From positions 11,663-75,662 of the forward strand of contig JAGWHC010000001.1 in assembly GCA_028867025.1 (NCBI GenBank): a DNA stretch of 64,000 nucleotides, given 5' to 3'. Numbering within the stretch: position 1 is the stretch's first letter; each line of letters opens with the position of its first letter. The notes beneath the pieces were generated by a model. The model was not told where the DNA came from. It made no database searches and saw only the letters and a list, made by a program, of their open reading frames with translations. Made by a program: the position numbers and the translations under genes. The DNA comes from Candidatus Micrarchaeota archaeon. GTDB lineage: Archaea > Micrarchaeota > Micrarchaeia > Micrarchaeales > CABMGC01. Of the stretch, positions 4,235 to 36,360 are shown one piece after another.

Positions 4235-4333
4235 TCTCTATGCTCTTCACTCTTATCCCTGACCCTGCAACCATAGTGCTAATACACCTCCTACAAGGTA
4301 TAAAAGTTTGTGTCAGGCGACTCTGGTCTGAGG

Positions 4334-5374: not shown

Positions 5375-5480
5375 TAAGTTACCCCCGATTATAGACAATA
5401 ATGTGATTGCGCTTTAATATATAAACTAATAGCGTATATGTCTCTTGCATCGAGAAATCTCGACAATTTCGGTTTCGATT

Positions 5481-6314: not shown

Positions 6315-6380
6315 CGAAAAGCTTAGAAGATTGGAATTAAAATCTTAACATGAGATGAGTCATAAGAATCAGGGAAATAT

Positions 6381-7046: not shown

Positions 7047-7052
7047 TTGGTA

Positions 7053-8699: not shown

Positions 8700-8714
8700 T
8701 TGTAGGTAATTTTG

Positions 8715-9977: not shown

Positions 9978-10012
9978 ATGATAAAATCGAAACGATAGGA
10001 GTTTATGTTTTT

Positions 10013-10903: not shown

Positions 10904-11610
10904 TCCATGAGCCATTTTGGCTTCATGCTCTCGACTTCTTTCAGTTCCTTGATGGTGTTTATGCTGTACCACTCCTCACCGTCGGCCATTTGATGGACTC
11001 TTATCTTTCCGGTGCCCGCGAGTTTATGGAACACCGCAGTCTCTATAGATCCAGTGTCAGGAAGGTAGTCGAGTATCTTGGAGCTGAAGATATAGATTCC
11101 ATCACTGACAAAAACGTCCTTCACGCGCGCCCCATACGTGAATCCTGTTGCGGTTTTGTCTTCATCGAAGGTTACAACGCTAAATTTTGAATAAAACGGT
11201 GCGAGCGAGAGCGTCGCCACGGTGCCTTCCTTCTCCCTGTGCGTCTGGTAGAGCTTGCTTATGTCGAGGTTTGTGAGCTCGTCTGCGTTCATCGCAAGAA
11301 AATCATCATCTTTTACGTGCCTCGTGATTGCGAGCTTGAACGCCTGAGCTGTGCCGCCTTCCAATGTGTGTTCGCTAAACTTGACATTGAAGCCGAAGTT
11401 TTGGTTCGCGTTCATGTAATCGAATATCTTATCTTTCTTGTACGCTACTCCAATTACAACGTTTTTTATTCCGCCTTTCTTAAGCCAGCGAAGTACCCAG
11501 TACAGTATAGGTTTGCCGTTAACCTCCACCAAGGTCTTGGGTCTGTCAACAGTGAGCGGGGCGAGCCTCGAGCCCTCTCCTCCAGCTATTATGACTGCTG
11601 TTTTAAGCAT
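10900..11610 (-). CDS. Sugar-phosphate nucleotidyltransferase (NTP_transferase family)
   Basis: AVIIAGGEGSRLAPLTVDRPKTLVEVNGKPIL is the canonical G-x-G-t-R-l signature. Confidence 0.85.
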   Translation of the reverse strand: MLKTAVIIAGGEGSRLAPLTVDRPKTLVEVNGKPILYWVLRWLKKGGIKNVVIGVAYKKDKIFDYMNANQNFGFNVKFSEHTLEGGTAQAFKLAITRHVKDDDFLAMNADELTNLDISKLYQTHREKEGTVATLSLAPFYSKFSVVTFDEDKTATGFTYGARVKDVFVSDGIYIFSSKILDYLPDTGSIETAVFHKLAGTGKIRVHQMADGEEWYSINTIKELKEVESMKPKWLMD

Positions 11611-11789: not shown

Positions 11790-14237
11790 TTGGAGGCTAA
11801 TTCAGAAAACACAAGTGGGACTGGAGACGCTAGGCTGGAAGTTGATAGAAAACGCGCACTGTACATCTTCTGGATTGCAATCCTGGCAATAATAGTAGCT
11901 ACCGTCTACTTCCGCACGCCCCTCCTCTCTTTCTACGGCTTCTACGAGCCCGATGGCTACTTCCATTACTCCATGATCAGGGCGGCCGTGAACAACGGCT
12001 TCTCGCTGCCGCAGAACCTCGGAATATCGGGATGGCCGCCGCAGTGCAACAGCTTCAGCGCCAACATCTGCGGCCCGACAGTGCCGCACCATGAGCCTTT
12101 CGGCCTCTACTGGGTCACGCTCATACCCTACTTCTTCCTGCAATTCGCAGGAATAGGCTACTATGACATACAGCGCACCATACCGGTGCTTTTTGGAATT
12201 CTAGATGTAGCGCTCGCGTACTTCCTTGCAAGGGGCTGGAGCAAGGACAGGTTCTTCGGGCTCCTCGTCATGGCGCTGATAGCTCTCAACATGGGCAACG
12301 CCGCAAGGACCAGCGCGCTCATATACAGGGGCGACAGCTTCGTAACCACTTTCTTCATAGCTGCGCTGATAGTGACTGTCGCGATGTTCAAAGCCGGAAG
12401 CGGGCGCAGGAAGCTGGAGTACATGTCGCTCGCCGCTGTTCTTCTCGCCCTCTGCAACCTGGTGTGGAACGGCGCGCCTTTCGCAACTGCCATATTCATA
12501 TTCGCGTTTGTGCTTGTCGTCGTACTCGGTTTCACCTTTGAGAAGAAGGAGCTTCTGGACAATGGCAAATACATGCTCGGCGCGCTGCTGATATGGTACG
12601 TGCTTGTTACGCTGTTCAAGTACTTCCTGTGGATAGCGTCTGACCAGACGTTCACCGGCATACACTTCTTCCTGCTGTTCATTCCGATGGCAATCGGCTG
12701 GTTCGCCGCCGACTATCTTGGCAAGGGAAGGGTGGAGCACATCGCATACCTGCACGCCCCTGTGAGACGGTTTGCTCTTGCCCTGGCTGCGATAGCCGTG
12801 ATCTTTGTTCTGATCTACGTGCTGATACCCAGTTTTGTCAACGATGTCTTCGTGACGACTGGCTTTGACATATCAACCGCATTCTCGTCCACCATAGAGG
12901 AGCTGCAGCTGCCTACGTACCAGTTCCTCTTCGCGAGCTTCAACTTCCAGAACTTCACCAACCCGATGAGCCTGGTGATGATTCTCGCTGCGCTTGTGCA
13001 GAAGTACGTGGTGCTCTTCTGGTTTGCGCTTCTCGCGCTCTTCGTGCCCTACTTCTTCATGCATATAGAGGGAGGGGACAGTGGCATGATGAGCGGCCAC
13101 GCGCGCTGGCACTTCGAGTTCGACGAGACACTGCTCATACTCATCTCCTACTTCGCGCTCACAGCCTATCTGCAGATGAACGCGATAAGGTTCAACTCCC
13201 TAGTCTCGGTGCCGATGTCGATCTTCAGCGCTTTCACTATATACTGGCTGGTCCTTCTGGTCAAGAACTACAAGGACAACTACTTCTTCAGCAAGTGGAT
13301 CAACGCCTATCACGCATCGTTCGTGCTTCTCGCCCTGCTCCTGGTCTTCGTGGTGCAGACGGACCTCGGCTACATCAGCGGGCTCGCGCCAGCGGACCAG
13401 ATAAACCCTCAGTTCCTGCAGGCGATGGCGTGGATGAAGAACAACACGCCCTCGAACAGCGTTGTGCTCACTCTGTGGCCCGACGGCTCAGTGGTGGAGG
13501 GCGTGGCGAACCTGACAAGCGTCACGGACAGCGTCGGCTCGCAGTACGCCATAAAGGCGAACCCGTTCGCAGCGTGGCTCTACAACTCCAGTCCGGATCC
13601 CGCCTTCCTGCTCGCCAACATAACCGGCGCGCCCAACTACCTCGTAGTGAGGCAGTCGTGGATGGTCGAGACAGGAGGCATATTCACTGAATCGGGGATA
13701 AACGTGAGCACCAACAACGGCTACGGATACAACCCGTTCAGCAGCCTCAACGAGAGGGTAAACGCCACTACGCAGCTCTTCCAGTTCTTCGGAAGCGGCC
13801 TCGAGGAGGATACGATAATAAGCAACAGCACCGGCGGACACACGATAGCAAGCTACCTGAAGTTCAGCCAGGGCATACAGCCTTTCGGATACGTCGCCTT
13901 CTACAACGTAGTCACGGGCAACTGGTCGATAGTCAAGCAGACTGCATTCAACGTCACGAACAACCAGACATTCCTCATAAGCTACTCTCCCATCCCCGCC
14001 CCCAACCTCTACGTCAACATAACCTCCGCGTACATGCTGGGCACCTCGCTGGCGGACAGCAACATGGTCAAGTTCCTCTTCCACTGCAACTCCCAGGCGT
14101 GCCTGTGGAACAACAACGTCGCCGGCCTGCGCCTCGTATACATCAACCAGGACACGAAGGTGTACCAGATAGTGTACAACGAGAGCAACTCGACCGTGGC
14201 GACGGCACTAGCAAGGTTCCCGCGAAAGAACGCATGA
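11790..14237 (+). CDS. aglB: AglB/STT3-type oligosaccharyltransferase (GT-C), divergent catalytic motif
   Basis: The N-terminal half is polytopic, and the first-loop motif is YGFYEPDGYFHY. After the last TM, FLQAMAWMKNNTPSNSVVLTLWPDGSVVEG aligns with the W..NTP....V.sWWDYG block of STT3/AglB. Confidence 0.7.
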   Translation: MEANSENTSGTGDARLEVDRKRALYIFWIAILAIIVATVYFRTPLLSFYGFYEPDGYFHYSMIRAAVNNGFSLPQNLGISGWPPQCNSFSANICGPTVPHHEPFGLYWVTLIPYFFLQFAGIGYYDIQRTIPVLFGILDVALAYFLARGWSKDRFFGLLVMALIALNMGNAARTSALIYRGDSFVTTFFIAALIVTVAMFKAGSGRRKLEYMSLAAVLLALCNLVWNGAPFATAIFIFAFVLVVVLGFTFEKKELLDNGKYMLGALLIWYVLVTLFKYFLWIASDQTFTGIHFFLLFIPMAIGWFAADYLGKGRVEHIAYLHAPVRRFALALAAIAVIFVLIYVLIPSFVNDVFVTTGFDISTAFSSTIEELQLPTYQFLFASFNFQNFTNPMSLVMILAALVQKYVVLFWFALLALFVPYFFMHIEGGDSGMMSGHARWHFEFDETLLILISYFALTAYLQMNAIRFNSLVSVPMSIFSAFTIYWLVLLVKNYKDNYFFSKWINAYHASFVLLALLLVFVVQTDLGYISGLAPADQINPQFLQAMAWMKNNTPSNSVVLTLWPDGSVVEGVANLTSVTDSVGSQYAIKANPFAAWLYNSSPDPAFLLANITGAPNYLVVRQSWMVETGGIFTESGINVSTNNGYGYNPFSSLNERVNATTQLFQFFGSGLEEDTIISNSTGGHTIASYLKFSQGIQPFGYVAFYNVVTGNWSIVKQTAFNVTNNQTFLISYSPIPAPNLYVNITSAYMLGTSLADSNMVKFLFHCNSQACLWNNNVAGLRLVYINQDTKVYQIVYNESNSTVATALARFPRKNA

Positions 14238-14242
14238 AGGGA

Positions 14243-14635
14243 TTAGTATGGCTTCTCTGCCGTTATCTCTACTATGCCTTCGAAATCCCTGATGTTCTGC
14301 GTAAATAGTTTGCAACGCAAGCTTGATGCTGTAGCGGCTATGAGGGCATCTGCCAGATTTACCCTGTGCCGCCTCCTCATCTCTCCAGCGGACTTTGCAA
14401 TATCTTCGCTCACTTCGATTTTTGTGAAAAGGTCCAGAAGATCGCTCCAGATCTTCCTTTTTACAGGATCGTCTGCTTCTTTGCCTGAGAAGAGCTCCGC
14501 GAGCGTTATTGTGGAAACGTATCCGGAAAGAAGCCCGTCTTCGACCTGCTTGACCAGCGCCGTGGCCTCCTTGGAATTGTTAAGGTGGTCGACCAGTATG
14601 TTTGTATCGAACACTGCTTCGCTCATTTCACTCAC
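14243..14635 (-). CDS. vapC: PIN-domain ribonuclease toxin VapC
   Basis: AVFDTNILVDHL N-terminal acidic motif and a later D residue pattern. It overlaps the upstream antitoxin gene by 4 nt. Confidence 0.85.
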   Translation of the reverse strand: MSEMSEAVFDTNILVDHLNNSKEATALVKQVEDGLLSGYVSTITLAELFSGKEADDPVKRKIWSDLLDLFTKIEVSEDIAKSAGEMRRRHRVNLADALIAATASSLRCKLFTQNIRDFEGIVEITAEKPY

Positions 14636-16016: not shown

Positions 16017-16095
16017 GTCCCCATGGCTAGACAGGAGCAAGAGAAGCGCGGCAGGGATTCTTTTTTAACTTTGCATGCACATGCTTATCGTTTGC

Positions 16096-17220
16096 ATGCG
16101 CATAGCATTCGCCTCGGACAGCGCCTATCCCTGGTTCAACGGTGGCATTGAGAAGAGGAGATACATAATAATGAGGAAGCTCGCGGAGGAGGGCCACGAG
16201 GTGCACTGCTTCACGATGCACAGGAAGAACATGCCAGGGCACGTGTTCACGTACAAGGGGATAAGGTACCACAGCGTCGGCGAGGCCCTGGGCTGGGAGG
16301 GAATGTACCGCGGGGGCAGCAAGCGCAGGAGCATACGCATGCCCCTGATCTTCAGCGCGCAGCTGTTCTGGAAGATACTGCCCTACAGGTTCGATGCCGT
16401 CGACGCCGACAACTTCCCGTTCCTGCACCTCTTTCCGCTCTTCTTCTACTCGAAGATACGCGGGGCGAGGTTCGCCATAACCTGGCACGAGGTCTGGAGC
16501 GCCGGCTTCTGGAAGAGATACCTCAGCGGTCTCGGCATACTCGGCTACTTCGTGGAATGGATAAGCGCGCGCATGGCGGATGTGCACATAGCGAACTCGA
16601 GCACGACCAAGAGGCTGCTTATCAGTGAGCTGGGCGCCGATCCTGACAAGATAATCGTGTTTCCCGTAGCCGTTGACACAGAGGAGATGCGGAGGTATTC
16701 TAGGATCAGGTACAGGAAGAAAGACCAGTTCCTTGTGGCAAGCAGGCTTGTGGGCCACAAGAGGGTCGAGCTCGCAATCTCTGCGATAGCGAAGACAAAG
16801 GCGAAGCTGCTAGTCATAGGCACGGGACCGGATGAGGAGAAGCTGGTCAGGCTCGCCAGCGAGGTGGCCCCGGGCCAGGTCACGTTCAAACATTCGCTCC
16901 CCACCGAGCAGCACTACAGGAGCTTCCTGGAGTCAAGGGCCTTGATTATGCCATCGGCGCGCGAGGGCCTCTCGCTCGTCACTGTTGAGGCGCTGGCGCT
17001 GGGCGTGCCTGTAGTAGTCGCAAACACCAGCTCGCTTCCAGAAGAGGTGAAGAGCATGTGCCTGGAAACCGGAGAGGACCGGCTCGGCTCGATGCTCAAC
17101 AAGATACTCGCGAACAGCAAGAGGTACGAAAACAGGGCGATGGGGCTGCGCGAGAAGGTGCTGAGGGAGTTCTCCGGAGACGATGCGGGAAAGGTATACG
17201 AGCAGGTGGTCGAAAGCTAA
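16096..17220 (+). CDS. Glycosyltransferase family 1 (GT4-type)
   Basis: MRIAFASDSAYPWFNGG N-terminus and C-terminal PSAREGLSLVTVEALALGVPVVVANTSSLPE (E-x7-E region). Confidence 0.85.
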   Translation: MRIAFASDSAYPWFNGGIEKRRYIIMRKLAEEGHEVHCFTMHRKNMPGHVFTYKGIRYHSVGEALGWEGMYRGGSKRRSIRMPLIFSAQLFWKILPYRFDAVDADNFPFLHLFPLFFYSKIRGARFAITWHEVWSAGFWKRYLSGLGILGYFVEWISARMADVHIANSSTTKRLLISELGADPDKIIVFPVAVDTEEMRRYSRIRYRKKDQFLVASRLVGHKRVELAISAIAKTKAKLLVIGTGPDEEKLVRLASEVAPGQVTFKHSLPTEQHYRSFLESRALIMPSAREGLSLVTVEALALGVPVVVANTSSLPEEVKSMCLETGEDRLGSMLNKILANSKRYENRAMGLREKVLREFSGDDAGKVYEQVVES

Positions 17221-17250
17221 TCCGTTCCGTCCCTTATTTATAACTTATAT

Positions 17251-20200
17251 ATGTCTAATTATAGAACTTGCATGGGCGCCGCTGCGAATAACACCCTTCT
17301 TATCTTCATCTTGGCAGTTTCTCTTTTCTCAATTTCATCATACGCGCAGTCCACCCTTGTTGGCTGCAATAACGTATGCGGAGTCGCATGCCCAGCTTCG
17401 GGGTACAGCACCGCCTCGTGCTCCAGCAGCTATGCGTACACCTGCACCTCGAGTTCATGCGCAACAACCTGCAACCTCTGCGTGCAGATAACAACGCAGT
17501 ACCAGCAGAACACAAACTACCAGTTCCAGTCGTTTTCAACTACCCCGATACCCTCTACTCTTTCCCCCGCTGAAAGCGTCAACCAGTACAACATAGGCAA
17601 CTCGGGCTGGTTCCTCACCTGCCCTGAGCCGCTTGCTCCGATGCTCGGTGACGTGAGCCCGGGGGACAACTCCCTGTTCTATCCCTACACGGCAGACCAC
17701 CAGTTCCAGTGGATCGGAGGCGACGCCTGCCGTGCCAGCACTACGCCGCTCACCTCTACAGTAGACCTGCCTGTCTCGGTAGGCTGGACCGTAGGTCCGA
17801 ACGGGCAATTCGCCTCGGCAAGCGTCGGCACCCTTAGCGTGTCACCGGTAGGCAGCCTGGCGCTCACCAACCTTGCATACTCTCCTGAGCTGGACACAGG
17901 AGGCGCGACGATAGCAAGCAGCTTCAACGTCAACTCCTACGTTTTCCAGTCGATACCTGCGGCTGCGCAGAACGACATCTGGACATGGAGCGCGCCTTTC
18001 GCGAACCTAAACGCTGGGACATCGATCGGCGACTCGCAGACTGTGACCGCCTCGCCAGTTGCGAAGTTCACAGAGTACACCAACCCCACCACCGATGATG
18101 ACACCGGCGGCGTACTTGCAGGAGCCGACAACTCGATACAGAAAAACTCAAACCTTACGCTTGCTGGCACGAGTAACTCCACGAAAAATACGACAGCAAG
18201 CAAAAATTCCACTGCGCTCTTGCTATCCGACACTGGAAAAGCGGCCGCACAGCTCTCCCTGACTGGACTTGGAGGTCAGTGCGCCGTTGGTGACACGTTT
18301 TGCCTGCCTGCATGCGATTCGGGACTGACGTGCAAAGGCAGCGGAACAAGGGGAGAGACGGGAGCGCCGAACTGCGATCTCTGTAACCTGCCCTCGAGCG
18401 GCTGCCACCAATTCGGCACCTGCGTTTCCGTCGCCACCTCCACCACTAGCACCACGACAAGCACCTCTTCTACTACCACTTCCCCCACCACATCTGTGGA
18501 GCCATACGTATGCCAGTACAGCTACGCGTACACCGAGAAGACCACTCTGACAAGCATAAAGAACGAGCAGATACCCTTCAACGAGGTGAACGTGATGACT
18601 GACCCGAACAACCCCGGAGCAAACAAGTACACGTTCAACACATTCCAGACTCCGATACTGCCGTACATAACGCTCGGATACAACATGCCCGCGCTAGACG
18701 GCCAGCAGATGAGCAACAGCTACGACGTCTTCTCGCCATGGAACTACAACACGCCGATAAACTCGATAGAGATGCTGCCGATAGACACGCCAAGCGTGTT
18801 CTTCGTGAACTACAGCGGACAGCTCTCATCAGTTCCCGCGGGCTCGCTGCTAAATCCCGGTTCGCTGAAGAACCTGCTAAGCAACCTTGATAAGTTGCTG
18901 GGCAACTTGGGCAACCTGCTGGGCAGTGGAGTAAGCCAGAAGTCGCAGGCGTCTACGGACCTGTCGCAGTTCGGCCTCTACCAGCCGAACATATACGACC
19001 CGATATCGATCGCGCAGGTGAGCAACGACTACATCTTCGTGCTCAACTACTCAAACCCGAGCAACGGAGGGAATGGCGACTACTACATCAGCGTCTTCAG
19101 GCTCATACCAAGGGGCTACTTCAGCACCAGCGGCCCCGACGCTTACGCGCGCAGCAAAGGGTTGTACAACCTTCAGCAGAGCTGCGATCCGACGCAGTCC
19201 GGCTGCTCCCAGTCGTCGCTGGAGGGCGCGAACCTCCAGAACTGGAACAACAACTGGAACGGGTACTGGGCGAATGTGATCGAGGCGCAGAACTCGAGCG
19301 TGTACCTGATAAGGAGCATTGACCTAGGCAGTCCGACATCATCGAGCACCAGCACTTTCATAGGCGAGTACCTGAGCACGGCGAGCAGTTCCACGAGCTG
19401 CAGCTCCGGAAACAAGTGTTCCGGGATAGACTACTTCTCGCCCATCAACATAACAGCGGATTCGCAGGGAGACGTGTTCATAACTGGGGATCTGGCCAAC
19501 TACAACCACAAGGTAAGCAAGATTTTTGGAGATTATGACTGGGCCGGAATAATGAAAATACCTGCGGTCAACGGTCAGACGCAACCGTCCCCGAGCCAGA
19601 TAAGCAGCACCACTGGCGACTGGTCGTCCACGAGCGGCGTGCCAGTACTGACAGAAATCGCTGTGAGCTCTGACGGCACCTGGCTCTACGCTTCTAACGA
19701 AAACATAGGCACAGTATACCAGTTCTCAGCCAGGAACAAACAGCTGGAGGAGAACCAGGGACTCGACCTGACGTTCGCCACAGGCTTCGGAGCAACCACG
19801 CAAAGCAGCCAGGCCGGAGCTCTGCAGACCTCTTTGAACATAGCATATTACCTGCAGTACGGCGGGCTCTACGGATACAAGTTCGACGGGAGCAGCGGAT
19901 CGCTAAACCTAGCGGCGAGCACTGTAAACCCGAACAACGTGGAGGTCGGCACCGACATGGACAGCAACGCATTCCACCACGCGGTCGGCCTTGAGAACAT
20001 AAACGGCTACATCTACGTGCTCGACGACTGGAAGGGAAGGATCGGCTTCAGCACCTCAAGCGGAGTGGGTTGGTGCTGGACCTTCTGGAGCTGCCCGTCG
20101 CAGAACGGCGGCACGTATTTCGACATACTCGTGCTCCGCGTTCTCGACCCCGCTGGCAACAACGTGCCTATAAACCCGACCCTGTTCAACGACATGTTCA

Positions 20201-23200
20201 CCACGCAGAGCTGCGCTGCAACATACACTCCTCCGGCGCCGACGGGTGGAGGGCAGTCTTACGGCCCGTCAAGCTGCATACCTGAGAGCTCATCATCGCA
20301 GCCTCCGACGATAACGTGCTCCAGCACAGGTGGGGTCGTGTGCAACCCTACATACGCTGGATGCACAACACCCAGCGGAGGCAACGGGGAACGCGAGTAC
20401 TGCTCCGCTGTAGGCAGCAGCTCTGTGAGTGCGGGAGAGTCACAGTACTACGCACTCTCCACCGGCACGTACTTCGCAAGCCAATCGCAGGTCTATCCGC
20501 CATACGGCTGGGTGCTTTCCGCAAACATAACGGCCACGTCCAACGGCGCAAGCCAAGTGTACTCGTGGACGAACACGAATGCCGGGGCACCGCACGGAGC
20601 CGGGGTCGGGATGAGCTGCGCCGCGCAGACCAGCATATACTGCATGACGCTCACGGGCACGTACGTGCTAACTTCGAGCGGCAGCGCCTACTCGTGGACG
20701 AACACGAATGCCGGGGCAGTTCCCGGAGGCGCGGTCAGAATGAGCTGCGTCTCATATAGCTCGACGGTGTTCTGCGTCACGCCAGCAGGCACCTACACGC
20801 TCAGCACCTCTCCGAGGTACTCCTGGAAAAACATAAACTCGGGACCAATCCCCGGAGGCGCGGGAGGCATAAGCTGCATGGCATCGCCTCTCTTCTGCGC
20901 CACGTCGTCGGGCACGTACGAGCTCACGAAAACGTGCAGCGGCTTGACGTGCCAAACCTACACCTACTCATGGACAGACAGCCAGGCGGGGATCGTCCCT
21001 GGATTCTCTACAGGAGTGAGCTGCGTCTCCAACTTCTGCATGACAACAAGGGGCACATACCAATTGACTATCAGCGGAGGGTTTGGAAGCAGCTATTCAT
21101 GGACAGACAGCGGAGCGGGGGTGGTGCCAGGCGCTGGCACGAGCATGAGCTGCGCGGCATCGAGCAACACCTACTGCATGACCCCGACAGGCACGTACTA
21201 CTTGAGCACTTCATACGCCAGCCTCGTGCCCACTTACTCATGGACAGACACGGGAGCAGGATCCGTGCCAGATACTGCCCCTGGAATGAGCTGCGCGGCC
21301 ACCTCATCACCCTACTGCATGACGCTAACAAGCACGTATGTGCTTTCTGTGTCAAGCGGCGTGGGCACCTTCCCGCTCTCGACCACATTCTGCTCGGCTG
21401 ACAACAAGGACTGCATGTTCAACCCTACAAACCTCCCGACGGAGCCGTGGTACACAAGCACATGGAAGCCGGTAGGCCCAGCGCTCAATGCGCAATACGA
21501 CAGCCTCGCACAGACAGGATTTTCGGAAAGCCTCAACAGCACGCTAACAGTACTCTTCAAGCAGTCGAAGTCCTGCAATGGTTTCTGGTGCGGCACGTTC
21601 ATAGGCGGCACCACTGTATCCGATCCAATATACGATGAGCTGCTCACCAGCACGTTCGGGGTGGAGAACTACACAAAGCTGTTCGACGGCGCGCAGCCCT
21701 TCAGTTGCTTCACGAATTCGCAGGGACATGCTGTGCCCGACCCGACCAAGGGATGCGTGTACCTTAACGACAGCCCTGCCGGAGGTGCGGACTACATAGA
21801 TAACATGTATCCGCCGGTGTTCACGACCACCAATCCGCTCAGGTACCTTGAGAGCCTCGGCGCCACGCAGCTGATCACGCAGCCCGGACAGGGCATAGGC
21901 GCGGTGACGGGCAACCAGGGATGCACAGGCGCGACGAGCGGCAGCGGATGCATAACTGCATACATCAAGGGAACGCCGCAGCTGATGATCAACATGTACC
22001 CTGGGAACTGGGGCGTGCCTGACACGATATCGGTGCAGACAACAGGCTCTGAAGCGCCGACAGACTCAATGCAGTTGCAGATAAGCGGGGGCGGACTCGG
22101 AACTCCAATAACTGTTACCAGCCCTGGCAGCGCGAGCTACACAGTATGCTCCAGCCTGAGCGAGACAGTATGCAAGCTTGGAGGAGGGCACACCTACACA
22201 ATAAAGGCAACCGACACAACAACGAAGGACACCTATACCGAGTCAAACTTCCAGATAAACGACATTCCGCTGGTGACGCTGCAGGGTCCGCAGAGCGTTA
22301 TAGTCACCTGCACCAACGGGCAGAGCTCTTGCACTCCAGCCACCGGACTCGTTACTGAGACAACTATGACAATAACTGCCACGCTCCCTCCGGACATGCA
22401 GAACGACCAGGTGTCCATAGGCATAGCGTGCACCAGCGGCAACTGCCAGACTACTGGAGTGAGCTGCGCCACAAACTACGCCTCCATGCTCTACCCGCAA
22501 AACACGCTTATAGAGAGCAACCTCTGCGCGAGTGACAGCGGCACAGCGACATACCAGGTGACCGCTACAGACACTGCGAACGGAGTGCAGGGCTACGCCA
22601 CGTTCCAGGTTGTGCAGTCAGGAGGCACGCCTCCCACCCCGGGCGCAGCGGAATCGCTGACCAGCAGCCTCTCCGGCTACATCATAATCCCATACGAGTA
22701 CACGTACCAGATCAACCAGAACTGGAACATACAGCCCGGAGTAGTGGTCAAGACGTTTGACGGAGACGAGAGCTACTGCCCTCCTCAGTCCCAGGGACCG
22801 ACGAGCAGCATGGTCAACGTGTTCAGCTACTCGCTGGTGAACGGCCAATCAAACCAGATCAGCGCCGCAGTAGAGGGCGGGGGCGCGTACCTCAACGACG
22901 TCTCCAACAACGGCTACTACATAGCCAATCTCACGAACGCGCATCTCGTGCTTCCGCCGCAGATACAGTACAACGTGCAGAACGACAGGCTCTTCGGCAC
23001 CATATGGGCAAATGCAACGTACTGCAGCGGCTCAACATCTTCAGGCTACGACTGCTCCGCAGACAACCAGGTCATTCTCAACGCCACGGTGCAGCTGCAG
23101 TACAGCGTGGAGCAGCACAACGAGTACCCTGGAATCTGCAGCTCTCAGGGCTGCGTGACCTACGGCGGCTACGAGACCTTCGGCACCGCGCCTACGGGGC

Positions 23201-24960
23201 TGCCGTACGGCACGCCTTCAGCATCGCTCATAGCGCCAACGTCGCAGCAGGCCAGGGAGTACCCTCCAAGAGGCACCCTGGGCTCCTCCAGCGCCACGTC
23301 CGCTGACGGCAACGTGCAGATAAGCATAACCCAGGAGCCCATAACGATACAGAACTCTGACTTGGTAACAGCTGCAGCACGCAATGGCGACAGCGTTGAG
23401 CTGCTGCTCAACGGGGTGCAGGTGGGAACCACATCCTACGTGGTGAACCCTGCGGGCTGCGCCTCCACATCGACGTGTCTCGGGGCAGGAACGTACCCGT
23501 TCGAGGCGCTAGACACTGTAACAGGCGAGTCTGTGAGCATCAACCTGATAATACTCCCGCAGCAGATCGGCTTCAAGTTCAACCCAACGCAGAAGTTCTT
23601 CTCCGTCCCTCTCTTCGACCTCTACAAGGAGGTGACCTACGACAGCCCGCTGGGCCTGTATCTGAACGGCACGCAGTACTGCATAGGCCCGAACTGCATA
23701 GGCCAGTATCCACTGCGCGGATACCAGCAGATTGTCTACGTCATGAACGACAGGTTCAACAATCTCATATACGTGCCCGTCGAGGCTGACATAGCGGACC
23801 CGATACAGATAAAGCTGAGCATAACGCAGCAGCCGGATGCGAACAATCCCAACCTCACCTCGATCACTATAAACGGGGTGGCGGGCTCCTACTCCAACAT
23901 AGGCTCCATCTTCACGCCGCTGCCGCAGGGCCAGGACATATACCTGTACTACAACAACAACCTCAACTACGTAAGCTACAACCCGCTTGCCGGAGGCTCG
24001 CAGACGCTTGACGCGGAGTACTGCGCCTTCGGAACTCAGGGCGAGGTGGCGAGCCTCAGCTGCGTCCAGTCAGATCCGGTGTACACCGGCACGTCAACGA
24101 GCCCGAGCAGGACGCAGAACGCGGACGTGGTCACGTACGCGCCCGAGTACAACTCCATTGGCCAGTGCAACCCGCCCACGCAGGGGCTGCTCGAGCCTCA
24201 GAACTTCATGTGCAACGTATACGGCTATCCTGAGGGAGCGGGCCTGCAGAACTCGTGCCCGAGCACGGGCGCGCTCTCGAAGTGCGACGCTGCGTATCCG
24301 TCTGTGGCGCAATGCCTCAGCACAGGCTGGACGCAGCCCACGACCGGCATAATACAGGATCCGCAAAGCTACTGCAGCCAGACAATGCCTGCTGACTACT
24401 CCGCATATCTCAGCTGCGCAGCATCGCAGACGTCTGGCAGCCCGCAGTTCTGCGAGCAGACAGACTACACTACGGGCAACGGCATATGCAGCTCGCAGAT
24501 CGGCCTGATACCATACTCGACGCAGCTTGCCAACGGCCAGTGGCAGGCCCAGAACACTGGAGCGGTGCCGATAAGCGACGGCAACGGCGACTTCTCTACG
24601 CAGCTATACGCGTGCGGCTCAAGGACAGACAGCGTGATAGCGAAGTACTATGGCTGGCCTCCTCCCGAGCCGATTCAGGTGACCCAGGTGCCGCTGGCGT
24701 TCACAGCGAACGCGGTCAACGGGAAGGGAGGATGCACAGGCACATGCAGCTCCTTCGTCTCTACCGAGCGAAGCGGCGGCGGGCAGAACGAGTTCAACTA
24801 CATATACGCACCGTACACCACGAGCCAGAGCGTCCAGATCGGACTCTTCGAGCTCGGCTACGGCAGCCTGAACCTCATCGCGACAGCGGCTACGATTGCG
24901 ACCGCGCTCATCCTGATGTTCAGGCATGAGCTTTTCGCGGGCAGGCGCGGACGGAAATAA
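17251..24960 (+). CDS. Giant (2569 aa) secreted, cysteine-rich, repeat-containing surface protein with a C-terminal membrane anchor
   Basis: A single uninterrupted ORF. The N-terminal signal-like segment is LLIFILAVSLFSISSYA/QS, and the C-terminus is LNLIATAATIATALILMF followed by RHELFAGRRGRK. The alternative start ATG 17272 fits a TATA-like tatttata at 17235. Confidence 0.85.
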   Translation: MSNYRTCMGAAANNTLLIFILAVSLFSISSYAQSTLVGCNNVCGVACPASGYSTASCSSSYAYTCTSSSCATTCNLCVQITTQYQQNTNYQFQSFSTTPIPSTLSPAESVNQYNIGNSGWFLTCPEPLAPMLGDVSPGDNSLFYPYTADHQFQWIGGDACRASTTPLTSTVDLPVSVGWTVGPNGQFASASVGTLSVSPVGSLALTNLAYSPELDTGGATIASSFNVNSYVFQSIPAAAQNDIWTWSAPFANLNAGTSIGDSQTVTASPVAKFTEYTNPTTDDDTGGVLAGADNSIQKNSNLTLAGTSNSTKNTTASKNSTALLLSDTGKAAAQLSLTGLGGQCAVGDTFCLPACDSGLTCKGSGTRGETGAPNCDLCNLPSSGCHQFGTCVSVATSTTSTTTSTSSTTTSPTTSVEPYVCQYSYAYTEKTTLTSIKNEQIPFNEVNVMTDPNNPGANKYTFNTFQTPILPYITLGYNMPALDGQQMSNSYDVFSPWNYNTPINSIEMLPIDTPSVFFVNYSGQLSSVPAGSLLNPGSLKNLLSNLDKLLGNLGNLLGSGVSQKSQASTDLSQFGLYQPNIYDPISIAQVSNDYIFVLNYSNPSNGGNGDYYISVFRLIPRGYFSTSGPDAYARSKGLYNLQQSCDPTQSGCSQSSLEGANLQNWNNNWNGYWANVIEAQNSSVYLIRSIDLGSPTSSSTSTFIGEYLSTASSSTSCSSGNKCSGIDYFSPINITADSQGDVFITGDLANYNHKVSKIFGDYDWAGIMKIPAVNGQTQPSPSQISSTTGDWSSTSGVPVLTEIAVSSDGTWLYASNENIGTVYQFSARNKQLEENQGLDLTFATGFGATTQSSQAGALQTSLNIAYYLQYGGLYGYKFDGSSGSLNLAASTVNPNNVEVGTDMDSNAFHHAVGLENINGYIYVLDDWKGRIGFSTSSGVGWCWTFWSCPSQNGGTYFDILVLRVLDPAGNNVPINPTLFNDMFTTQSCAATYTPPAPTGGGQSYGPSSCIPESSSSQPPTITCSSTGGVVCNPTYAGCTTPSGGNGEREYCSAVGSSSVSAGESQYYALSTGTYFASQSQVYPPYGWVLSANITATSNGASQVYSWTNTNAGAPHGAGVGMSCAAQTSIYCMTLTGTYVLTSSGSAYSWTNTNAGAVPGGAVRMSCVSYSSTVFCVTPAGTYTLSTSPRYSWKNINSGPIPGGAGGISCMASPLFCATSSGTYELTKTCSGLTCQTYTYSWTDSQAGIVPGFSTGVSCVSNFCMTTRGTYQLTISGGFGSSYSWTDSGAGVVPGAGTSMSCAASSNTYCMTPTGTYYLSTSYASLVPTYSWTDTGAGSVPDTAPGMSCAATSSPYCMTLTSTYVLSVSSGVGTFPLSTTFCSADNKDCMFNPTNLPTEPWYTSTWKPVGPALNAQYDSLAQTGFSESLNSTLTVLFKQSKSCNGFWCGTFIGGTTVSDPIYDELLTSTFGVENYTKLFDGAQPFSCFTNSQGHAVPDPTKGCVYLNDSPAGGADYIDNMYPPVFTTTNPLRYLESLGATQLITQPGQGIGAVTGNQGCTGATSGSGCITAYIKGTPQLMINMYPGNWGVPDTISVQTTGSEAPTDSMQLQISGGGLGTPITVTSPGSASYTVCSSLSETVCKLGGGHTYTIKATDTTTKDTYTESNFQINDIPLVTLQGPQSVIVTCTNGQSSCTPATGLVTETTMTITATLPPDMQNDQVSIGIACTSGNCQTTGVSCATNYASMLYPQNTLIESNLCASDSGTATYQVTATDTANGVQGYATFQVVQSGGTPPTPGAAESLTSSLSGYIIIPYEYTYQINQNWNIQPGVVVKTFDGDESYCPPQSQGPTSSMVNVFSYSLVNGQSNQISAAVEGGGAYLNDVSNNGYYIANLTNAHLVLPPQIQYNVQNDRLFGTIWANATYCSGSTSSGYDCSADNQVILNATVQLQYSVEQHNEYPGICSSQGCVTYGGYETFGTAPTGLPYGTPSASLIAPTSQQAREYPPRGTLGSSSATSADGNVQISITQEPITIQNSDLVTAAARNGDSVELLLNGVQVGTTSYVVNPAGCASTSTCLGAGTYPFEALDTVTGESVSINLIILPQQIGFKFNPTQKFFSVPLFDLYKEVTYDSPLGLYLNGTQYCIGPNCIGQYPLRGYQQIVYVMNDRFNNLIYVPVEADIADPIQIKLSITQQPDANNPNLTSITINGVAGSYSNIGSIFTPLPQGQDIYLYYNNNLNYVSYNPLAGGSQTLDAEYCAFGTQGEVASLSCVQSDPVYTGTSTSPSRTQNADVVTYAPEYNSIGQCNPPTQGLLEPQNFMCNVYGYPEGAGLQNSCPSTGALSKCDAAYPSVAQCLSTGWTQPTTGIIQDPQSYCSQTMPADYSAYLSCAASQTSGSPQFCEQTDYTTGNGICSSQIGLIPYSTQLANGQWQAQNTGAVPISDGNGDFSTQLYACGSRTDSVIAKYYGWPPPEPIQVTQVPLAFTANAVNGKGGCTGTCSSFVSTERSGGGQNEFNYIYAPYTTSQSVQIGLFELGYGSLNLIATAATIATALILMFRHELFAGRRGRK
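20560..21360 (+). repeat. Six tandem 43-49-aa coding repeats (YSWT[ND]..AG...SC....C.T..GTY.L) inside the giant gene
   Basis: The repeat heads tactcgtggacgaacacgaatgccggggca (x2) and tactcatggacagaca (x3) are visible in the DNA. Each unit keeps two Cys and a GTY motif. Confidence 0.85.
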
Positions 24961-25013: not shown

Positions 25014-26219
25014 ATGCTGCCGATAGTTTTGAGCTTCGGAGCGATATACGCTCTTATCCCACTGCTCATAATAATCATACTCATAGCCGCTGCAGCGGGG
25101 ATAAGCAGGGGCTACGACATATTCTCCATATTCGGCATAGGCGTGCTCGCCGGCATAGGAGGCGCCGCCTCTAGGGGAGGCAAGGCCACGGGAAGCATCG
25201 CGGGCAAGACAGCTTACAAGGGCAGGGCTGGAAGCGTGCTTGTAAGGCCCATGGGCAAAAGCATAGCGGGAAAAATGCTAGGCAAAGGGGTCGCGGGCAC
25301 TGCAGGCAAGATAAAGGGCGTGGGAAACACAATCAAGGCAAAGCAGCTTGCGAATGACCTGAAGTCCATGCAGAAAGGAGGAGAGCTGAGCACAAGCAAC
25401 CTCGGAAAAGCGCAAGGAGTCAAGCTCGCTGCAGGGGCCGTGCTCGCCGTGGGGGCGCTTCACAACGTGGGCTTGAGATTATTGGGCAGCGGCGCATACG
25501 GAAGGGCGGCGAAGAAATTCGAGGAGGCCAGGCAGAGGAACGACACGAAGAAGATGCAGGAATGGGGCTACAAGATGAACCAGTGGAGGGAGAGGCACGG
25601 GGTGCAGCCGACGACAGCGCTCGAGCTCGCATCTACAGCCTACGCGCTTCAGTACATGGCAGACAAGGTCGGCGCGCAGAAAGGTCCCGGTGCGGAGCTG
25701 AACATAAGCCTTAACGAGAAGGGCAAGCCTGTATCCAATAGGGCGAAGACGCTAAGCGAGATACAGGCGAGGAAAAGAACTGGTGGGATGAGGACCGGCA
25801 TGAAACATTACACTAGTGACCTCAAGGATTTCACGAAAACCTACTTCAGTCCCAAGTATCTGGCGGGCGAGGGCCTGATGGGCAGGAAAACCGACAAAGC
25901 CAAGTACGAATCGATGGTAAATCTTGCAAAGATGTCGACGCTATACATAGAGGCAAGGAAGGGTGGAGACGTAGACCAGCTCATGAAAGATTTCAGCGCT
26001 GGCAAAGGGGCTTTCGAGAGCGGCAAGATAGCTACGGAACTGAACAATGTGCTGCAGCTGCACGGCATAAAGACACCGCTGCCTCCCACTCCGATTGCAT
26101 CTGTTAAGGGAACAGCCGGGAAGACTTTTGGAGACGAGCACAAGACCATTAATGAGTTTAGGAAGAGGCTCATATACAAGACAGGAGAGGAGCTGGGCAA
26201 GAAGAAAAAGGGACCCTAG
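25014..26219 (+). CDS. Lys/Gly-rich basic membrane protein (two N-terminal TM segments), unknown function
   Basis: MLPIVLSFGAIYALIPLLIIIILIAAAAG and IFGIGVLAGIGGAA, followed by a K/G-rich soluble region. It starts 53 nt after the giant gene. Confidence 0.6.
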   Translation: MLPIVLSFGAIYALIPLLIIIILIAAAAGISRGYDIFSIFGIGVLAGIGGAASRGGKATGSIAGKTAYKGRAGSVLVRPMGKSIAGKMLGKGVAGTAGKIKGVGNTIKAKQLANDLKSMQKGGELSTSNLGKAQGVKLAAGAVLAVGALHNVGLRLLGSGAYGRAAKKFEEARQRNDTKKMQEWGYKMNQWRERHGVQPTTALELASTAYALQYMADKVGAQKGPGAELNISLNEKGKPVSNRAKTLSEIQARKRTGGMRTGMKHYTSDLKDFTKTYFSPKYLAGEGLMGRKTDKAKYESMVNLAKMSTLYIEARKGGDVDQLMKDFSAGKGAFESGKIATELNNVLQLHGIKTPLPPTPIASVKGTAGKTFGDEHKTINEFRKRLIYKTGEELGKKKKGP

Positions 26220-26479: not shown

Positions 26480-26551
26480 GGGCTCTTAGCTCAACGGTAG
26501 AGCGTCCGCTTTGCAGGCGGAAGGTTGCGGGTTCGAATCCCGCAGAGTCCA
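26480..26551 (+). tRNA. tRNA-Ala (anticodon UGC)
   Basis: Manual cloverleaf: GGGCTCT/AGAGTCC acceptor with the G3:U70 Ala identity pair. The anticodon arm is TCCGC-TTTGCAG-GCGGA and the T arm is GCGGG-TTCGAAT-CCCGC, with discriminator A. No CCA is encoded. Confidence 0.92.
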
Positions 26552-26563
26552 TCCGTGAACTGC

Positions 26564-27952
26564 TTACGGCCCGCCGACCTGGGTCACCTGCTGATTCCCT
26601 GGTTTTATTGCGGGTTTTGGAGAGGTGCGAAGCACATCTCTCAGAGCGTAGTTCCTGAGGAAGTATTCGTCGAACTTCTCATACATCTCCCACCTCTGAA
26701 CCCCGAACTGCGCACGCATGATCTTGCTGATCTCGACGTAGTTGTCCGCAATCTGATCCACGGCGTCATCCTCGGCGGCGGTAAGCATCTTGCCTATGTG
26801 TTTGCTTGCCTGGCTTACGTCCTCTGTGGTGAGCGTCCTGGAGGTCACATTCAGGTTCCTCTTCTTTGCAACCAACTCGAGATGGAGCTGCAACTCCTCG
26901 AACCTTTTATCCACCTCGGCGGCCTTCTTGTCTTCAAAGGCTCCCGCGGCTTTCATCGCTTCTTTTTCCTTGGCGAGCTGCCACATCTGCGAGCTTATCA
27001 GCCTCTGGGCCTTCTTGTCTTTCGCGCTGAGCCTGTCGTCCATGAATTCCTCAAGCGTATTCATTCTGCCAAGCATGTGTCCTGCAGTGTTTGCTCCTAT
27101 CTTTGCCTTGGCTTCAGCCTTCATCTGCGCCTCCATTCCTGGAAGCAGGACGGTGTTTGACATTCCGCGCCTTCTTATCTCCTCCTGATTGCCGACCATC
27201 TTGTTGAGGAACGCGTATGCGCCCACAACCCCTTCCCTTGTCATTATGTCCGATGCCTCGTCCAGTATTGTGTAGAGCGAGACAACGTGCTCTCGGCGTA
27301 TCTGGTCGACATGCAGGTTCGGGACGTTCATCTGCGCGTATGTCTCCAGGAAAGTAACCATCTGCTCGTCAGTGGTCTTTGGCTGCTTGAAGGGTGCGTT
27401 CTGCGCCAAGCCAGTAAGGTTTCGCACAATCCACTTTGCGGAATGCTTGTGCTCCTCTTTCTTTAGGTACTGATCCAACTCGTGGAACGCGTCTCCAAAC
27501 TGCTGGTTGCCTCCGGAAGGCGTCACGAAAGCCTCACTGAAAAATTCATTTAGCCTGGTAGGAGCGGCTGTCAGTTCAAGCAGCTCTTGCTTTGCGCTCT
27601 GCATTGAGTTCTTTACATTCTGCTCAAAAGAATCATTGTTTTTCATCAGAGGATCGAATGAGCCGAGTATTTTTGCTAGCGAATCGGCTGTGCGCTCATC
27701 GCCCCTGTTGATGTCTGACCCGCTCAGAAATGTTTTGAATTCGTCATTGTTGTGCTTTGCGAGTTTCAAAACCCCATACCATCTCCTTTCTTCGGGCGTC
27801 ATCGCTGCGCCCTTGGACTGTAGGCTGGATATTCCAAGGTCGATTATACTTGCAAGGTGGTTGGTATCGTTGAAATGCTTGTACATCTTGTGGTACTGTT
27901 CCTGCGTCTGCTCTACAAAATCGGCTGCTCTTTCCCTCTCTTTCTCCCCCAT
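26564..27952 (-). CDS. Hypothetical soluble alpha-helical protein (462 aa)
   Basis: A long ORF with a coherent, charged, helix-prone composition and no TM segment. No family recognised. Confidence 0.7.
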   Translation of the reverse strand: MGEKERERAADFVEQTQEQYHKMYKHFNDTNHLASIIDLGISSLQSKGAAMTPEERRWYGVLKLAKHNNDEFKTFLSGSDINRGDERTADSLAKILGSFDPLMKNNDSFEQNVKNSMQSAKQELLELTAAPTRLNEFFSEAFVTPSGGNQQFGDAFHELDQYLKKEEHKHSAKWIVRNLTGLAQNAPFKQPKTTDEQMVTFLETYAQMNVPNLHVDQIRREHVVSLYTILDEASDIMTREGVVGAYAFLNKMVGNQEEIRRRGMSNTVLLPGMEAQMKAEAKAKIGANTAGHMLGRMNTLEEFMDDRLSAKDKKAQRLISSQMWQLAKEKEAMKAAGAFEDKKAAEVDKRFEELQLHLELVAKKRNLNVTSRTLTTEDVSQASKHIGKMLTAAEDDAVDQIADNYVEISKIMRAQFGVQRWEMYEKFDEYFLRNYALRDVLRTSPKPAIKPGNQQVTQVGGP

Positions 27953-30402: not shown

Positions 30403-30421
30403 CGTTGAGATACGTATCGAT

Positions 30422-30506
30422 GCCGGGGTGGCAGAATCTGGTCATCGCGCTGGTCCCGAAAACCAGTGCCCTTCGGGGCTTTAGGGTTCAAATCCCTACC
30501 CCGGCG
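30422..30506 (+). tRNA. tRNA-Ser (anticodon CGA), type II with long variable arm
   Basis: GCCGGGG/CCCCGGC acceptor with discriminator G. The anticodon arm is CTGGT-CCCGAAA-ACCAG, the variable arm is GCCC-TTCG-GGGC and the T arm is TAGGG-TTCAAAT-CCCTA. The D stem is imperfect. Confidence 0.85.
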
Positions 30507-30669
30507 AACGCTTTCCTGCGCGTCGCAGATTCAGGATAAAAAACCGAACAGTGTATGCTTCCCTTAAATAATTTTTATGGGCTAAAGTAAAATGTGGGTG
30601 TGGCGGCAGGCGAACACTTTTGGTTCTCCCCGATCCGCGTGTCTTCTCGCCTGGCCGCCCTTTCCCTAA

Positions 30670-36289: not shown

Positions 36290-36360
36290 GGAGGCATCGT
36301 CTAGTGGTAGGACGGCAGATTGACATTCTGCAAGCGGGAGTCCAATTCTCCCTGCCTCCA
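36290..36360 (+). tRNA. tRNA-Val (anticodon GAC) with a non-canonical T-loop
   Basis: GGAGGCA/TGCCTCC acceptor with discriminator A. The D arm is GTCT-AGTGGTA-GGAC, the anticodon arm is GCAGA-TTGACAT-TCTGC and the T arm is GGGAG-TCCAATT-CTCCC. The variable loop is 4 nt. Confidence 0.8.

Follow-up and report, generated by a model that had tools for sequence, protein, structure and literature searches.

The 64,000-nucleotide stretch of a Candidatus Micrarchaeota archaeon metagenome-assembled genome analysed here (assembly GCA_028867025.1, contig JAGWHC010000001.1, positions 11,663 to 75,662; called the window in the following, with all coordinates given as positions in it) raises the question of what a single giant gene, located directly behind genes of the N-glycosylation machinery, does for the cell that carries it. 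The initial annotation of the window had noticed an uninterrupted open reading frame (ORF) of 2569 codons, which is indeed present (17251..24960, + strand), and had suggested that its product may be the main envelope or attachment protein. From the analyses reported here, the product is probably a type-I membrane-anchored, disulfide-stabilised and N-glycosylated giant ectoprotein; as to its role, we give about even weight, for and against, to the reading that it is a glycosylated contact or effector-presenting scaffold facing another cell or matrix. The predicted protein has a mass of ~270 kDa and an isoelectric point of 4.2, is rich in Ser and Thr (24%) and poor in Lys and Arg (2.7%), and contains 85 Cys (3.3%), 84 of them past the signal peptide; residue numbers throughout are those of the 2569-aa ORF.

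Pfam and NCBIfam scans of the giant protein returned no match at E <= 0.1, and neither phmmer nor a 30-sequence, 1,648-position family profile (E <= 10) retrieved any chain from all PDB sequences, so that the earlier statement that the architecture belongs to no named surface-layer (S-layer) or adhesin family holds. Relatives are nevertheless numerous. A first homology search returned twelve of them, collinear over the full length, and two later word-indexed searches added no members; the C-terminal block (aa 2103-2569) was then made into a profile from 11 sequences, the window protein among them, and an exhaustive hidden Markov model (HMM) search with it through 1.84 billion cluster representatives (clusters at 50% identity) gave 203 representatives at E <= 1e-3, of which 187 reached E <= 1e-30. 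In these matches the block lies almost always at the very C-terminus of proteins of 1,500-3,800 aa; the window protein itself scores 496.8 bits, its own sequence being among the 11 in the profile. By these scores the family is sharply bounded and comprises about 200 such clusters. In species-representative genomes a scan found at least 80 loci, and the locus counts given here refer to the 80 listed: 70 are titled Micrarchaeota, Micrarchaeia or Micrarchaeaceae, six only "archaeon" and four Marsarchaeota, and among the loci listed two loci occur in only one assembly. The four assemblies labelled Candidatus Marsarchaeota (L051, L065, L072 and L077) carry typical members and are possibly mislabelled bins; an NCBI "Marsarchaeota" protein is likewise a member of the P0012 cluster. 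All source names seen for family members are "hypothetical protein". As far as genome labels and sequence matches go, the family is almost confined to Micrarchaeota-labelled genomes and is named in no source record or domain library queried. The window protein shares the collinear core of the family, that is the N-terminal domain, a beta-sandwich, a propeller-like region (YVLDDW, YPPYGW), an ENYTK block, a C-terminal Cys-paired block, a transmembrane (TM) segment and a basic tail.

The relatives also bear on the possibility that the ORF is spurious, a pseudogene with frameshifts or a chimera of the assembly; chimera and frameshifts had already been considered in the initial annotation. The unusual length and the low-complexity stretches are all that speaks for an artefact of this kind; more than 100 independently assembled, collinear, full-length homologues speak against it, as does the closest relative, P0002, found as an identical copy on four contigs from three sources, and we consider its probability practically negligible. 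The internal repeats point the same way. Six units had been described as YSWT repeats; there are six (20548..21363, +, aa 1100-1371), of which five read YSWT and one YSWK, each ~45 aa long (43-49 aa) and with one Cys pair. At the DNA level the units are 50-68% identical to each other, and Tandem Repeats Finder detects no array in the gene, its sole item being 36 bp long, two copies of an 18-bp unit at 23149-23184; since the units are diverged and no array is found, an assembly collapse is unlikely. A self-BLAST of the whole protein gave nothing, and a piecewise self-search the YSW repeats only. Judged from their sequences the repeats are ancient, and in the family alignment the insertion is seen in the window protein alone (column occupancy 0.03-0.14 over aa 1101-1350).

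The type-I membrane topology is suggested by the two ends of the protein. As described earlier, a signal-like helix is found at the N-terminus, with a hydropathy maximum at aa 7-34 and LLIFILAVSLFSISSYA as the hydrophobic h-region; the predicted signal peptide is MGAAANNTLLIFILAVSLFSISSYA (17272..17346, +), with a putative cleavage at its end, and an N-terminal hydrophobic segment is present in 97 of 124 full-length relatives. The C-terminal hydrophobic helix and the RRGRK tail were likewise correctly recognised: by hydropathy a TM helix spans aa 2539-2557 and continues into a predicted basic cytoplasmic tail, RHELFAGRRGRK (24865..24957, +), and 119 of the 124 relatives have a C-terminal hydrophobic segment. 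The initial annotation had compared this end to sortase-type sorting signals, remarking that PGF is missing. PGF is lacking indeed, and no other archaeosortase motif (PEF, VPXXXP etc.) precedes the TM helix, where the family conserves QIGLFELSYG; no NCBIfam CTERM model matches the giant protein, and no archaeosortase gene was found among the 26 ORFs scanned within the window, which covers 64 kb of a 658-kb contig. Because both the PGF-type motif and a CTERM match are absent, the C-terminus reads as a plain type-I anchor and the likeness to sortase signals is not retained.

Between these ends, the ectodomain contains an even number of Cys in 87 of 93 complete members (binomial p = 1.7e-19), strong statistical evidence that the cysteines are paired in disulfides. 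Two Cys-dense modules, as claimed, are present in the window protein, at aa 39-77 (17365..17481, +; 8 Cys, variable in the family) and at aa 344-391. Small Cys-rich modules between poly-Ser/Thr linkers recur in the N-terminal and linker regions of P0002, P0003, P0004, P0006 and P0011-P0013, with patterns such as CxCNxC...CPxSCP and CPxGSxC...GGxC...CCC; they have no Pfam match and look like disulfide knots.

The tie to glycosylation rests on two lines, one in the protein and one in the gene order. The many N-x-S/T sequons listed in the initial annotation turned out to be few, with 18 observed versus 38 +/- 5 expected by chance (2,000 composition-preserving shuffles, none as low as 18). Sequon richness, with a count half of chance, was therefore dropped as evidence of glycosylation, and the valid argument is positional conservation: eight of the 18 sequons (N733, N1092, N1429, N1473, N1893, N1921, N1944 and N2201) each keep their position in 22 or more of 29 relatives, those at N1473 and N2201 doing so in all 29.

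As to the gene order, a glycosyltransferase of family GT4 (GT-B fold, described before as GT1; 16075..17220, +; Pfam Glycos_transf_1, 2e-20) ends 30 nt before the ORF, and an AglB/STT3-like oligosaccharyltransferase gene (11790..14237, +) lies ~3.0 kb before it; these spacings, and the 53 nt between the giant gene and the basic membrane protein gene that follows, had been given correctly. The AglB-like product matches Pfam STT3 at 5.7e-5, below the curated cut-off, and has no NCBIfam match; its orthologues in the syntenic loci L004 and L007 are 69-72% identical and flagged PF02516, and that in L001 (916 aa) is 62% identical, with no recorded Pfam match. The gene order in L001, L004 and L007 runs from the STT3/AglB-like gene through two small reverse-strand genes, GT4, the giant gene, its partner (the basic membrane protein), a ~520-aa gene, NAC, DUF424 and GT2 to TruD; L006 retains no more of it than the giant gene with its partner and GT4, the latter on the opposite strand. 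The giant proteins of these four loci are 34-53% identical to that of the window. Thus GT4 lies directly upstream in L001, L004, L006 and L007 and adjoins the giant gene in all five syntenic loci, in one of them on the opposite strand, and the AglB/STT3-like gene is nearby in four of the five. On this synteny, it is no accident that glycosylation genes stand beside the giant gene, and N-glycosylation of the giant protein by the adjacent AglB/GT4 pathway may be proposed as a well-founded inference.

Upstream of these genes, the region 2639-11610 contains a sugar-modification cluster with a Polysacc_synt flippase-like protein, two epimerase/dehydratases, a hexapeptide acyltransferase, a nucleotidyltransferase and two methyltransferases, one of the C-methyltransferase type; these genes point to a glycan with an unusual sugar, methylated or deoxy.

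What would such a protein face? A first indication comes from its rate of change. When the syntenic proteins of L001, L004 and L007 are compared with those of the window, AglB is 62-72% identical, GT4 67-73%, TruD 72-75% and PcrB 88-92%, with all syntenic neighbours together at 52-92%, versus 34-53% for the giant protein. The giant protein diverges much faster than its neighbours.

A second indication is the exchange of accessory modules. Among 29 relatives scanned for domains in all, the first 13 include members with GH5 cellulase, GH39, GxGYxYP and SLT_3 modules (Pfam), and 16 long members gave SLT_3 in six, as well as NlpC/P60, peptidase M23, SLT and DUF2341; one long relative has true PKD domains. 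A preferred insertion site corresponds to aa 524-583 of the window protein (18820..18999, +), at the junction between the beta-sandwich and the propeller-like region. In the 91 members in which both flanks were detected, this hot spot is a short L/G/N-rich loop in 63 and holds inserts of 126-465 aa in 28; ten of the long inserts were scanned, and SLT_3 was found in six, SLT in one and NlpC/P60 in one, with seven of these eight matches above the Pfam curated cut-off. In the window protein the site is occupied by a Leu/Gly/Asn-rich segment, GSLKNLLSNLDKLLGNLGNLLGSG, which is amphipathic (hydrophobic moment 0.56, mean hydrophobicity 0.12).

Modules of this kind could also belong to a cell-tethered scavenging platform, whose degrading or binding modules capture products of the biofilm matrix or of necromass, with no specific partner cell. 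The GH5, GH39, GxGYxYP, SLT, NlpC/P60 and M23 modules of the relatives are compatible with it, and so is the life of Micrarchaeota, which are without many biosynthetic pathways and live in biofilms rich in extracellular polymeric substances (PMC8975820, PMC5498576). However, no enzyme module can be detected in the window protein or in most of its relatives, as the short loop in the majority at the hot spot illustrates, the conserved core of ~1,650 residues goes far beyond what a tether needs, and the modules are mostly wall-lytic and not typical exo-acting nutrient hydrolases; we regard this explanation as improbable.

A third indication is the predicted fold of the N-terminal half. AlphaFold modelling of aa 33-1100 with 13 sequences was unusable (predicted local distance difference test, pLDDT, 41.6); with 42 family sequences a mean pLDDT of 63 and a predicted template-modelling score (pTM) of 0.55 were obtained. 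The model shows, in this order, a beta-rich N-terminal domain, a disordered linker, an eight-stranded beta-sandwich and four-stranded beta-meanders broken by helices. In Foldseek searches against the PDB all 15 matches at E <= 1e-3 are beta-propeller proteins, among them PpgL (6igb, 2e-5), putative 6-phosphogluconolactonases, CylK, YncE, Sec12 and PAL, a lyase of NHL type; a Methanosarcina surface protein with a YVTN propeller (1l0q) follows with E 9e-3, and the viral library BFVD returned WD40, YVTN, NHL and YncE-like proteins together with unnamed ones and a few of other kinds. The strands GDVFITGD, DGTWLYASN and NGYIYVLDD, cited earlier as reminiscent of NHL/YVTN blades, are present in the sequence, in the region whose model gave these propeller-only PDB matches. 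YVTN, NHL and lactonase propeller repeats gave no Pfam match, and the 30-sequence profile no PDB sequence match; the model weakly suggests that the centre of the protein is beta-propeller-like at the fold level.

These features can be placed on the protein from its N-terminus. A conserved beta-rich domain (~aa 100-280; 17548..18090, +) carries the invariant C124 and C160 and an IWTWSA motif, and in the AlphaFold model most of its 10-residue blocks have pLDDT 63-89, with 40-51 in three stretches. A lineage-specific segment follows (18091..18435, +), with a cluster of four sequons at aa 301-319, the second Cys-rich module and a column occupancy of 0.13-0.18; then a pure S/T/P linker, recognisable from its composition and counted at 20 residues (18436..18495, +) where 21 had been given. 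The conserved beta-sandwich-like domain, with eight predicted strands, covers aa 418-523 (18502..18819, +), and the propeller-like centre, with helical insertions and the motifs GDVFITG, NGYIYVLDDW and YPPYGWVLSAN, is assigned from AlphaFold and Foldseek to aa 584-1100 (19000..20550, +).

Past the YSW units, a core block (aa 1376-1575; 21376..21975, +) contains the sequons N1429-S-T (27/29 relatives) and N1473-Y-T (29/29) and Cys1486 and Cys1502 (29/29). It is followed by two tandem beta-sandwich-type modules of 80-120 aa (aa 1576-1667 and 1672-1790; 21976..22620, +), which end in GxxTYxxxAxDT, then by a further core block with the sequons N1893, N1921 and N1944 (aa 1800-2000; 22648..23250, +), and by a third module (aa 2023-2098; 23317..23544, +; occupancy 0.10-0.12 among 30 members), which, among the 13 closest homologues aligned, is common only with the closest relative P0002. 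All three modules ending in G-x-x-TY-x-x-x-A-x-DT had been pointed out before. An HMM of module 1, built from relatives, finds the first (1576-1667, independent E-value, iE, 2e-23) and the third (2023-2098, iE 4.7e-9); the middle one is homologous by position, where P0002 and P0003 match with iE ~1e-8. At least one copy occurs in 53 of 153 family sequences, and by these matches the modules are a repeat family of their own. They may have an immunoglobulin-like fold; PKD, CARDB and bacterial Ig-like domains gave no Pfam match in the giant protein. The C-terminal signature block (aa 2103-2538; 23557..24864, +), with about ten invariant Cys and the sequon N2201 (29/29), leads to the TM helix.

A windowed conservation profile assigns aa 100-250, 400-1000, 1050-1100, 1400-1550, 1800-1950, 2100-2350 and 2400-2550 to the shared core; YPPYGWVLSANIT marks a conserved stretch of the protein. 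The lineage-specific inserts are aa 250-400 (sequon cluster, Cys module and S/T linker), 1100-1375 (YSW units), 1550-1800 (the two tandem modules, in roughly half of the aligned members, occupancy 0.33-0.59), 2000-2100 (third module) and 2350-2400 (Cys-rich). Fast divergence, a content of propeller and beta-sandwich domains, the swapping of modules and a fixed site at which lytic inserts recur make up a pattern that would be expected if the protein faces another organism.

The first half of the original suggestion, that of a main envelope protein, is unsupported, because the S-layer of these archaea is made of a different, PF05123 protein and the giant protein is without those domains; attachment is the better half, and is backed indirectly. 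In Ca. M. harzensis SLP_Mh (Micr_00292), the protein of the S-layer, is a glycosylated PF05123/TIGR01564 protein of theoretical 101 kDa with almost no residues that contain sulfur; it is the most abundant protein of the organism and has homologues in 38 of 49 Micrarchaeota genomes (bioRxiv 10.1101/2021.04.28.441871). Micrarchaeota lattices have moreover been predicted among the MSTP-like S-layers (bioRxiv 10.1101/2024.05.28.596244). The giant protein, for which the S_layer_N/MSTP profiles PF05123, TIGR01564 and TIGR01567 give no match at E <= 0.1, resembles SLP_Mh in the phylum of origin, as a secreted envelope protein, in its own case with predicted glycosylation, and in having its gene near AglB; it differs from this ~100 kDa, nearly Cys-free and most abundant S_layer_N protein by the absence of these domains and by its 3.3% Cys. 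Thus, even if large size, acidity, secretion, richness in Ser/Thr and a place beside glycosylation genes would suit a lattice protein, the experimental identification of the 101-kDa protein, its wide distribution and the MSTP-like prediction make it very unlikely that the giant protein is the main S-layer lattice protein.

Some evidence weighs against a contact function, and part of it bears on another explanation. The family is phylum-wide, mostly with one locus per assembly, and is found in fixed synteny with core glycosylation genes, a pattern that fits a housekeeping envelope component and is atypical for a host-specificity factor. The contact-site filaments of Ca. M. harzensis appear host-derived in cryo-electron tomography (PMC8975820), and the giant encoded beside its S-layer gene, compared by its description in the same source, has a low abundance value, 0.95 versus 124.8 for the S-layer protein. 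In the window protein no domain of an adhesin, a lectin or an enzyme is recognised by Pfam or NCBIfam; the fold matches, for a model of aa 33-1100 with mean pLDDT 63, have target-normalised TM scores of 0.09-0.38 (top 15) and root-mean-square deviations of 10-20 A.

The giant protein could accordingly be a structural envelope component, serving as an anchor, stalk or pillar for the S-layer or as a minor S-layer constituent and not for cell-cell contact; the C-terminal block and the TM segment would lie in the pseudoperiplasm, with the distal domains docked on the PF05123 lattice protein. Besides the distribution of the family and its synteny with AglB and GT4, the conserved TM anchor and the conserved structural sequons and disulfides agree with this explanation, and the anchoring of the Micrarchaeota S-layer was stated as unknown by Krause et al. 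(PMC8975820). A further point in its favour is the gene for a 5,095-aa giant protein that, from the description of the Ca. M. harzensis locus, lies between AglB and the S-layer gene (PMC8975820). On the other hand, the lytic and glycoside-hydrolase inserts of many relatives would make little sense in a pillar, length varies (~1,500-3,800 aa), divergence is much faster than in the neighbours, and neither a known anchor, SlaB for example, nor any PDB chain was found to resemble the protein. We consider a structural role a serious alternative, yet clearly less probable than a contact or effector-presenting scaffold.

The Sulfolobales SlaA/SlaB pair offers a comparison for such an envelope role, in that one of two adjacent genes codes for an outer protein that is large and glycosylated and the other for a smaller protein of the membrane; however, the large protein of the window has its own TM segment, and the bulk of its partner is Lys-rich and predicted to be cytoplasmic instead of forming an extracellular coiled-coil stalk. 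No similarity to SlaA or SlaB was seen, no PDB chain having matched the giant protein, the family profile or the partner profile.

Giant surface proteins have been described in other Micrarchaeota. In Mia14 (Ca. Mancarchaeum acidiphilum) MIA14_0152, _0331, _0793 and _0946 are huge "strain-specific secreted surface proteins" (PMC5498576), and Micr_00291, the 5,095-aa protein of Ca. M. harzensis, is described as having a lectin/glucanase domain of the ConA type (PMC8975820, Supplementary Data S5). In the region Micr_00288-00293 of Ca. M. harzensis A_DKE, as described, AglB (Micr_00288) is followed within three genes by Micr_00291, and then by the S-layer gene (PMC8975820); compared by description, this giant-after-AglB order is reminiscent of the window. 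Mia14 giants and Micr_00291 are similar to the window protein in being giant surface proteins of Micrarchaeota, and are described with beta-propeller, PKD or lectin-like modules and a proposed role in host interaction; unlike them, described as strain-specific, the window family is phylum-wide with a conserved core, a comparison that likewise relies on their descriptions. The pattern on which the contact reading is based parallels the proposal made for other giant DPANN surface proteins (PMC5498576). The Methanosarcina mazei surface-layer protein with tandem YVTN and PKD modules (1L0Q; Jing et al. 2002, as cited in PMC5498576) is comparable as an archaeal surface protein that joins a propeller to beta-sandwich modules, as is weakly predicted for the window protein; the giant protein, however, has no YVTN or PKD Pfam match, has several times its size and bears large helical insertions in the propeller-like region, and nothing in the Methanosarcina protein corresponds to the rest of its core.

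More distant parallels are conceptual, and concern giant surface proteins of small-genome symbionts in which adhesion-type repeats occur together with lytic modules directed at the envelope of another cell. The SPEARE proteins of Nanohaloarchaeota are reportedly longer than 3,000 aa and unite domains for adhesion with those of a serine protease and of restriction-endonuclease type. In episymbiotic or predatory bacteria, giant genes that encode wall-degrading domains have been outlined (bioRxiv 10.1101/2023.11.21.568195). With neither group were shared domains or homology detected, SPEARE-type Pfam domains being found neither in the window protein nor in the 29 relatives scanned; the window protein is without an enzyme module, and its TM anchor and partner are family-specific. 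The giant type is of a known kind, that of the giant modular surface protein of a small-genome symbiont, and the family has a conserved core, a partner and a hot spot of its own.

The partner (25014..26219, +) is a basic protein of 401 aa. Its N-terminal domain (~75 aa, two TM segments) is nearly invariant across loci (consensus ...ALIPIIIIIILIAAAAGLTRGYDIFALFGIGTLLGIGAG...), and what follows is Lys-rich and so variable that it can hardly be aligned between loci; by the positive-inside rule the Lys-rich remainder would be cytoplasmic. No Pfam, NCBIfam or PDB match was found for the partner. An HMM of its domain detects it directly downstream of the giant gene, on the same strand, in 51 of the 80 loci, three of the 51 being weak matches inside the giant ORF that are perhaps spurious. 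By this recurrent pairing, the giant and partner genes are a conserved two-gene module.

In the slot after the partner the window has a 462-aa helical, Lys/Glu-rich protein (26564-27952, -), without detectable similarity to the ~520-aa helical, Pfam-less protein that fills the same slot in L001 (18146-19708, -), L004 and L007; to judge from these sequences, the slot is a second fast-evolving or replaced gene beside the giant/partner module.

If the reading of a contact or effector-presenting scaffold is followed, the protein would be expressed from its own TATA-driven, near-leaderless transcript and exported by Sec; the neighbouring AglB/GT4 pathway would glycosylate the conserved core sequons, disulfides would form in the ectodomain, and the C-terminal helix would retain the protein in the membrane, probably jointly with the two-TM domain of the partner. 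The N-terminal half, with the beta domain, S/T linker, beta-sandwich, beta-propeller and lineage-specific modules, would point outward and touch another cell or its matrix, most plausibly of a host. The conserved core would act as a scaffold on which lineage-specific binding or lytic modules are shown at fixed junctions, and in the window protein the modules so presented may be the Cys knots, the YSW hairpin repeats, the extra beta-sandwich modules and the amphipathic loop. In this chain of events we infer that the sequons do carry glycans, what the partner does, that the protein reaches past the S-layer and that it makes contact; family membership, the topology signals, the statistics of Cys pairing, the conservation of sequons and gene order, the fast divergence and the modular inserts of relatives are shown by the data.

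A more specific and speculative proposal, to which as a whole we give little weight, is that giant protein and two-TM partner together constitute a phylum-wide envelope-breaching contact device, with an interchangeable effector at the beta-sandwich/propeller site that is lytic or membrane-active according to the target. As parts of the same proposal, walled targets would be met with a lysozyme-like, SLT or NlpC/P60 effector; in the acid-mine clade of the window, whose known hosts are wall-less Thermoplasmatales, the Leu/Gly/Asn amphipathic segment would engage the host membrane; and the Lys-rich cytoplasmic domain of the partner would couple contact to the interior of the symbiont.

The start of the gene, placed at 17251 in the initial annotation, has to be moved within the same frame. 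A TATA box, TTATTTATAA (17234..17243, +), lies within the 30-nt spacer with its centre ~33 nt before the ATG at 17272; it is conserved in four of the five loci aligned, for besides the window L001, L004 and L007 keep it upstream of the orthologue, and in L006 it can be recognised. L001 has no ATG corresponding to 17251, in L004 this ATG is out of frame, and the NCBI record of the protein, P0001, has 2562 aa, that is a start at M8. Since the spacer holds a kept TATA box and relatives have the first ATG either not at all or in another frame, translation probably begins at the ATG at 17272 (M8), also kept in the alignment, which gives a gene at 17272..24960 (+) of 2562 aa plus stop. Matching the archaeal TATA consensus, the box may act as the giant gene's own promoter, and its distance of ~33 nt from the ATG therefore implies a near-leaderless mRNA. 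The block 17234-17271, which comprises the TATA box and the 21 nt before the ATG, is highly alike in DNA across four loci (CTTATTTATAACTTATATATGTCTAATTATAGAGTTTGCATG), a conservation far above that of the coding sequence downstream of ATG 17272.

A few features of the surroundings may be added. A PIN-domain gene (14243-14635, -) lies between AglB and the giant gene, and AbiEii, PIN and MazE genes occur at varying places of the island in other loci (L007 6728-7549 and 19449-20108; L006 4860-5537), so that genes of toxin-antitoxin type seem to have been inserted repeatedly in it. The tRNA genes for Ala-TGC (26480-26551, just past the partner gene), Ser-CGA (30421-30507) and Val-GAC (36290-36360) follow, and further on a stretch of low GC content (40001-42000, 0.41 versus ~0.55 elsewhere) overlaps a gene (40897-41928, -) whose 343-aa product has two HTH domains of winged-helix type.

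For the question of how a DPANN archaeon recognises its host, holds on to it and taps it, the giant family provides a concrete candidate, usable with the Micrarchaeota co-cultures of Ca. M. harzensis, Mia14 and ARM-1. The family profile lets annotators label a protein that is now "hypothetical" everywhere; and, if the protein should truly be a structural pillar, it would still answer the question of how the S-layer is anchored.

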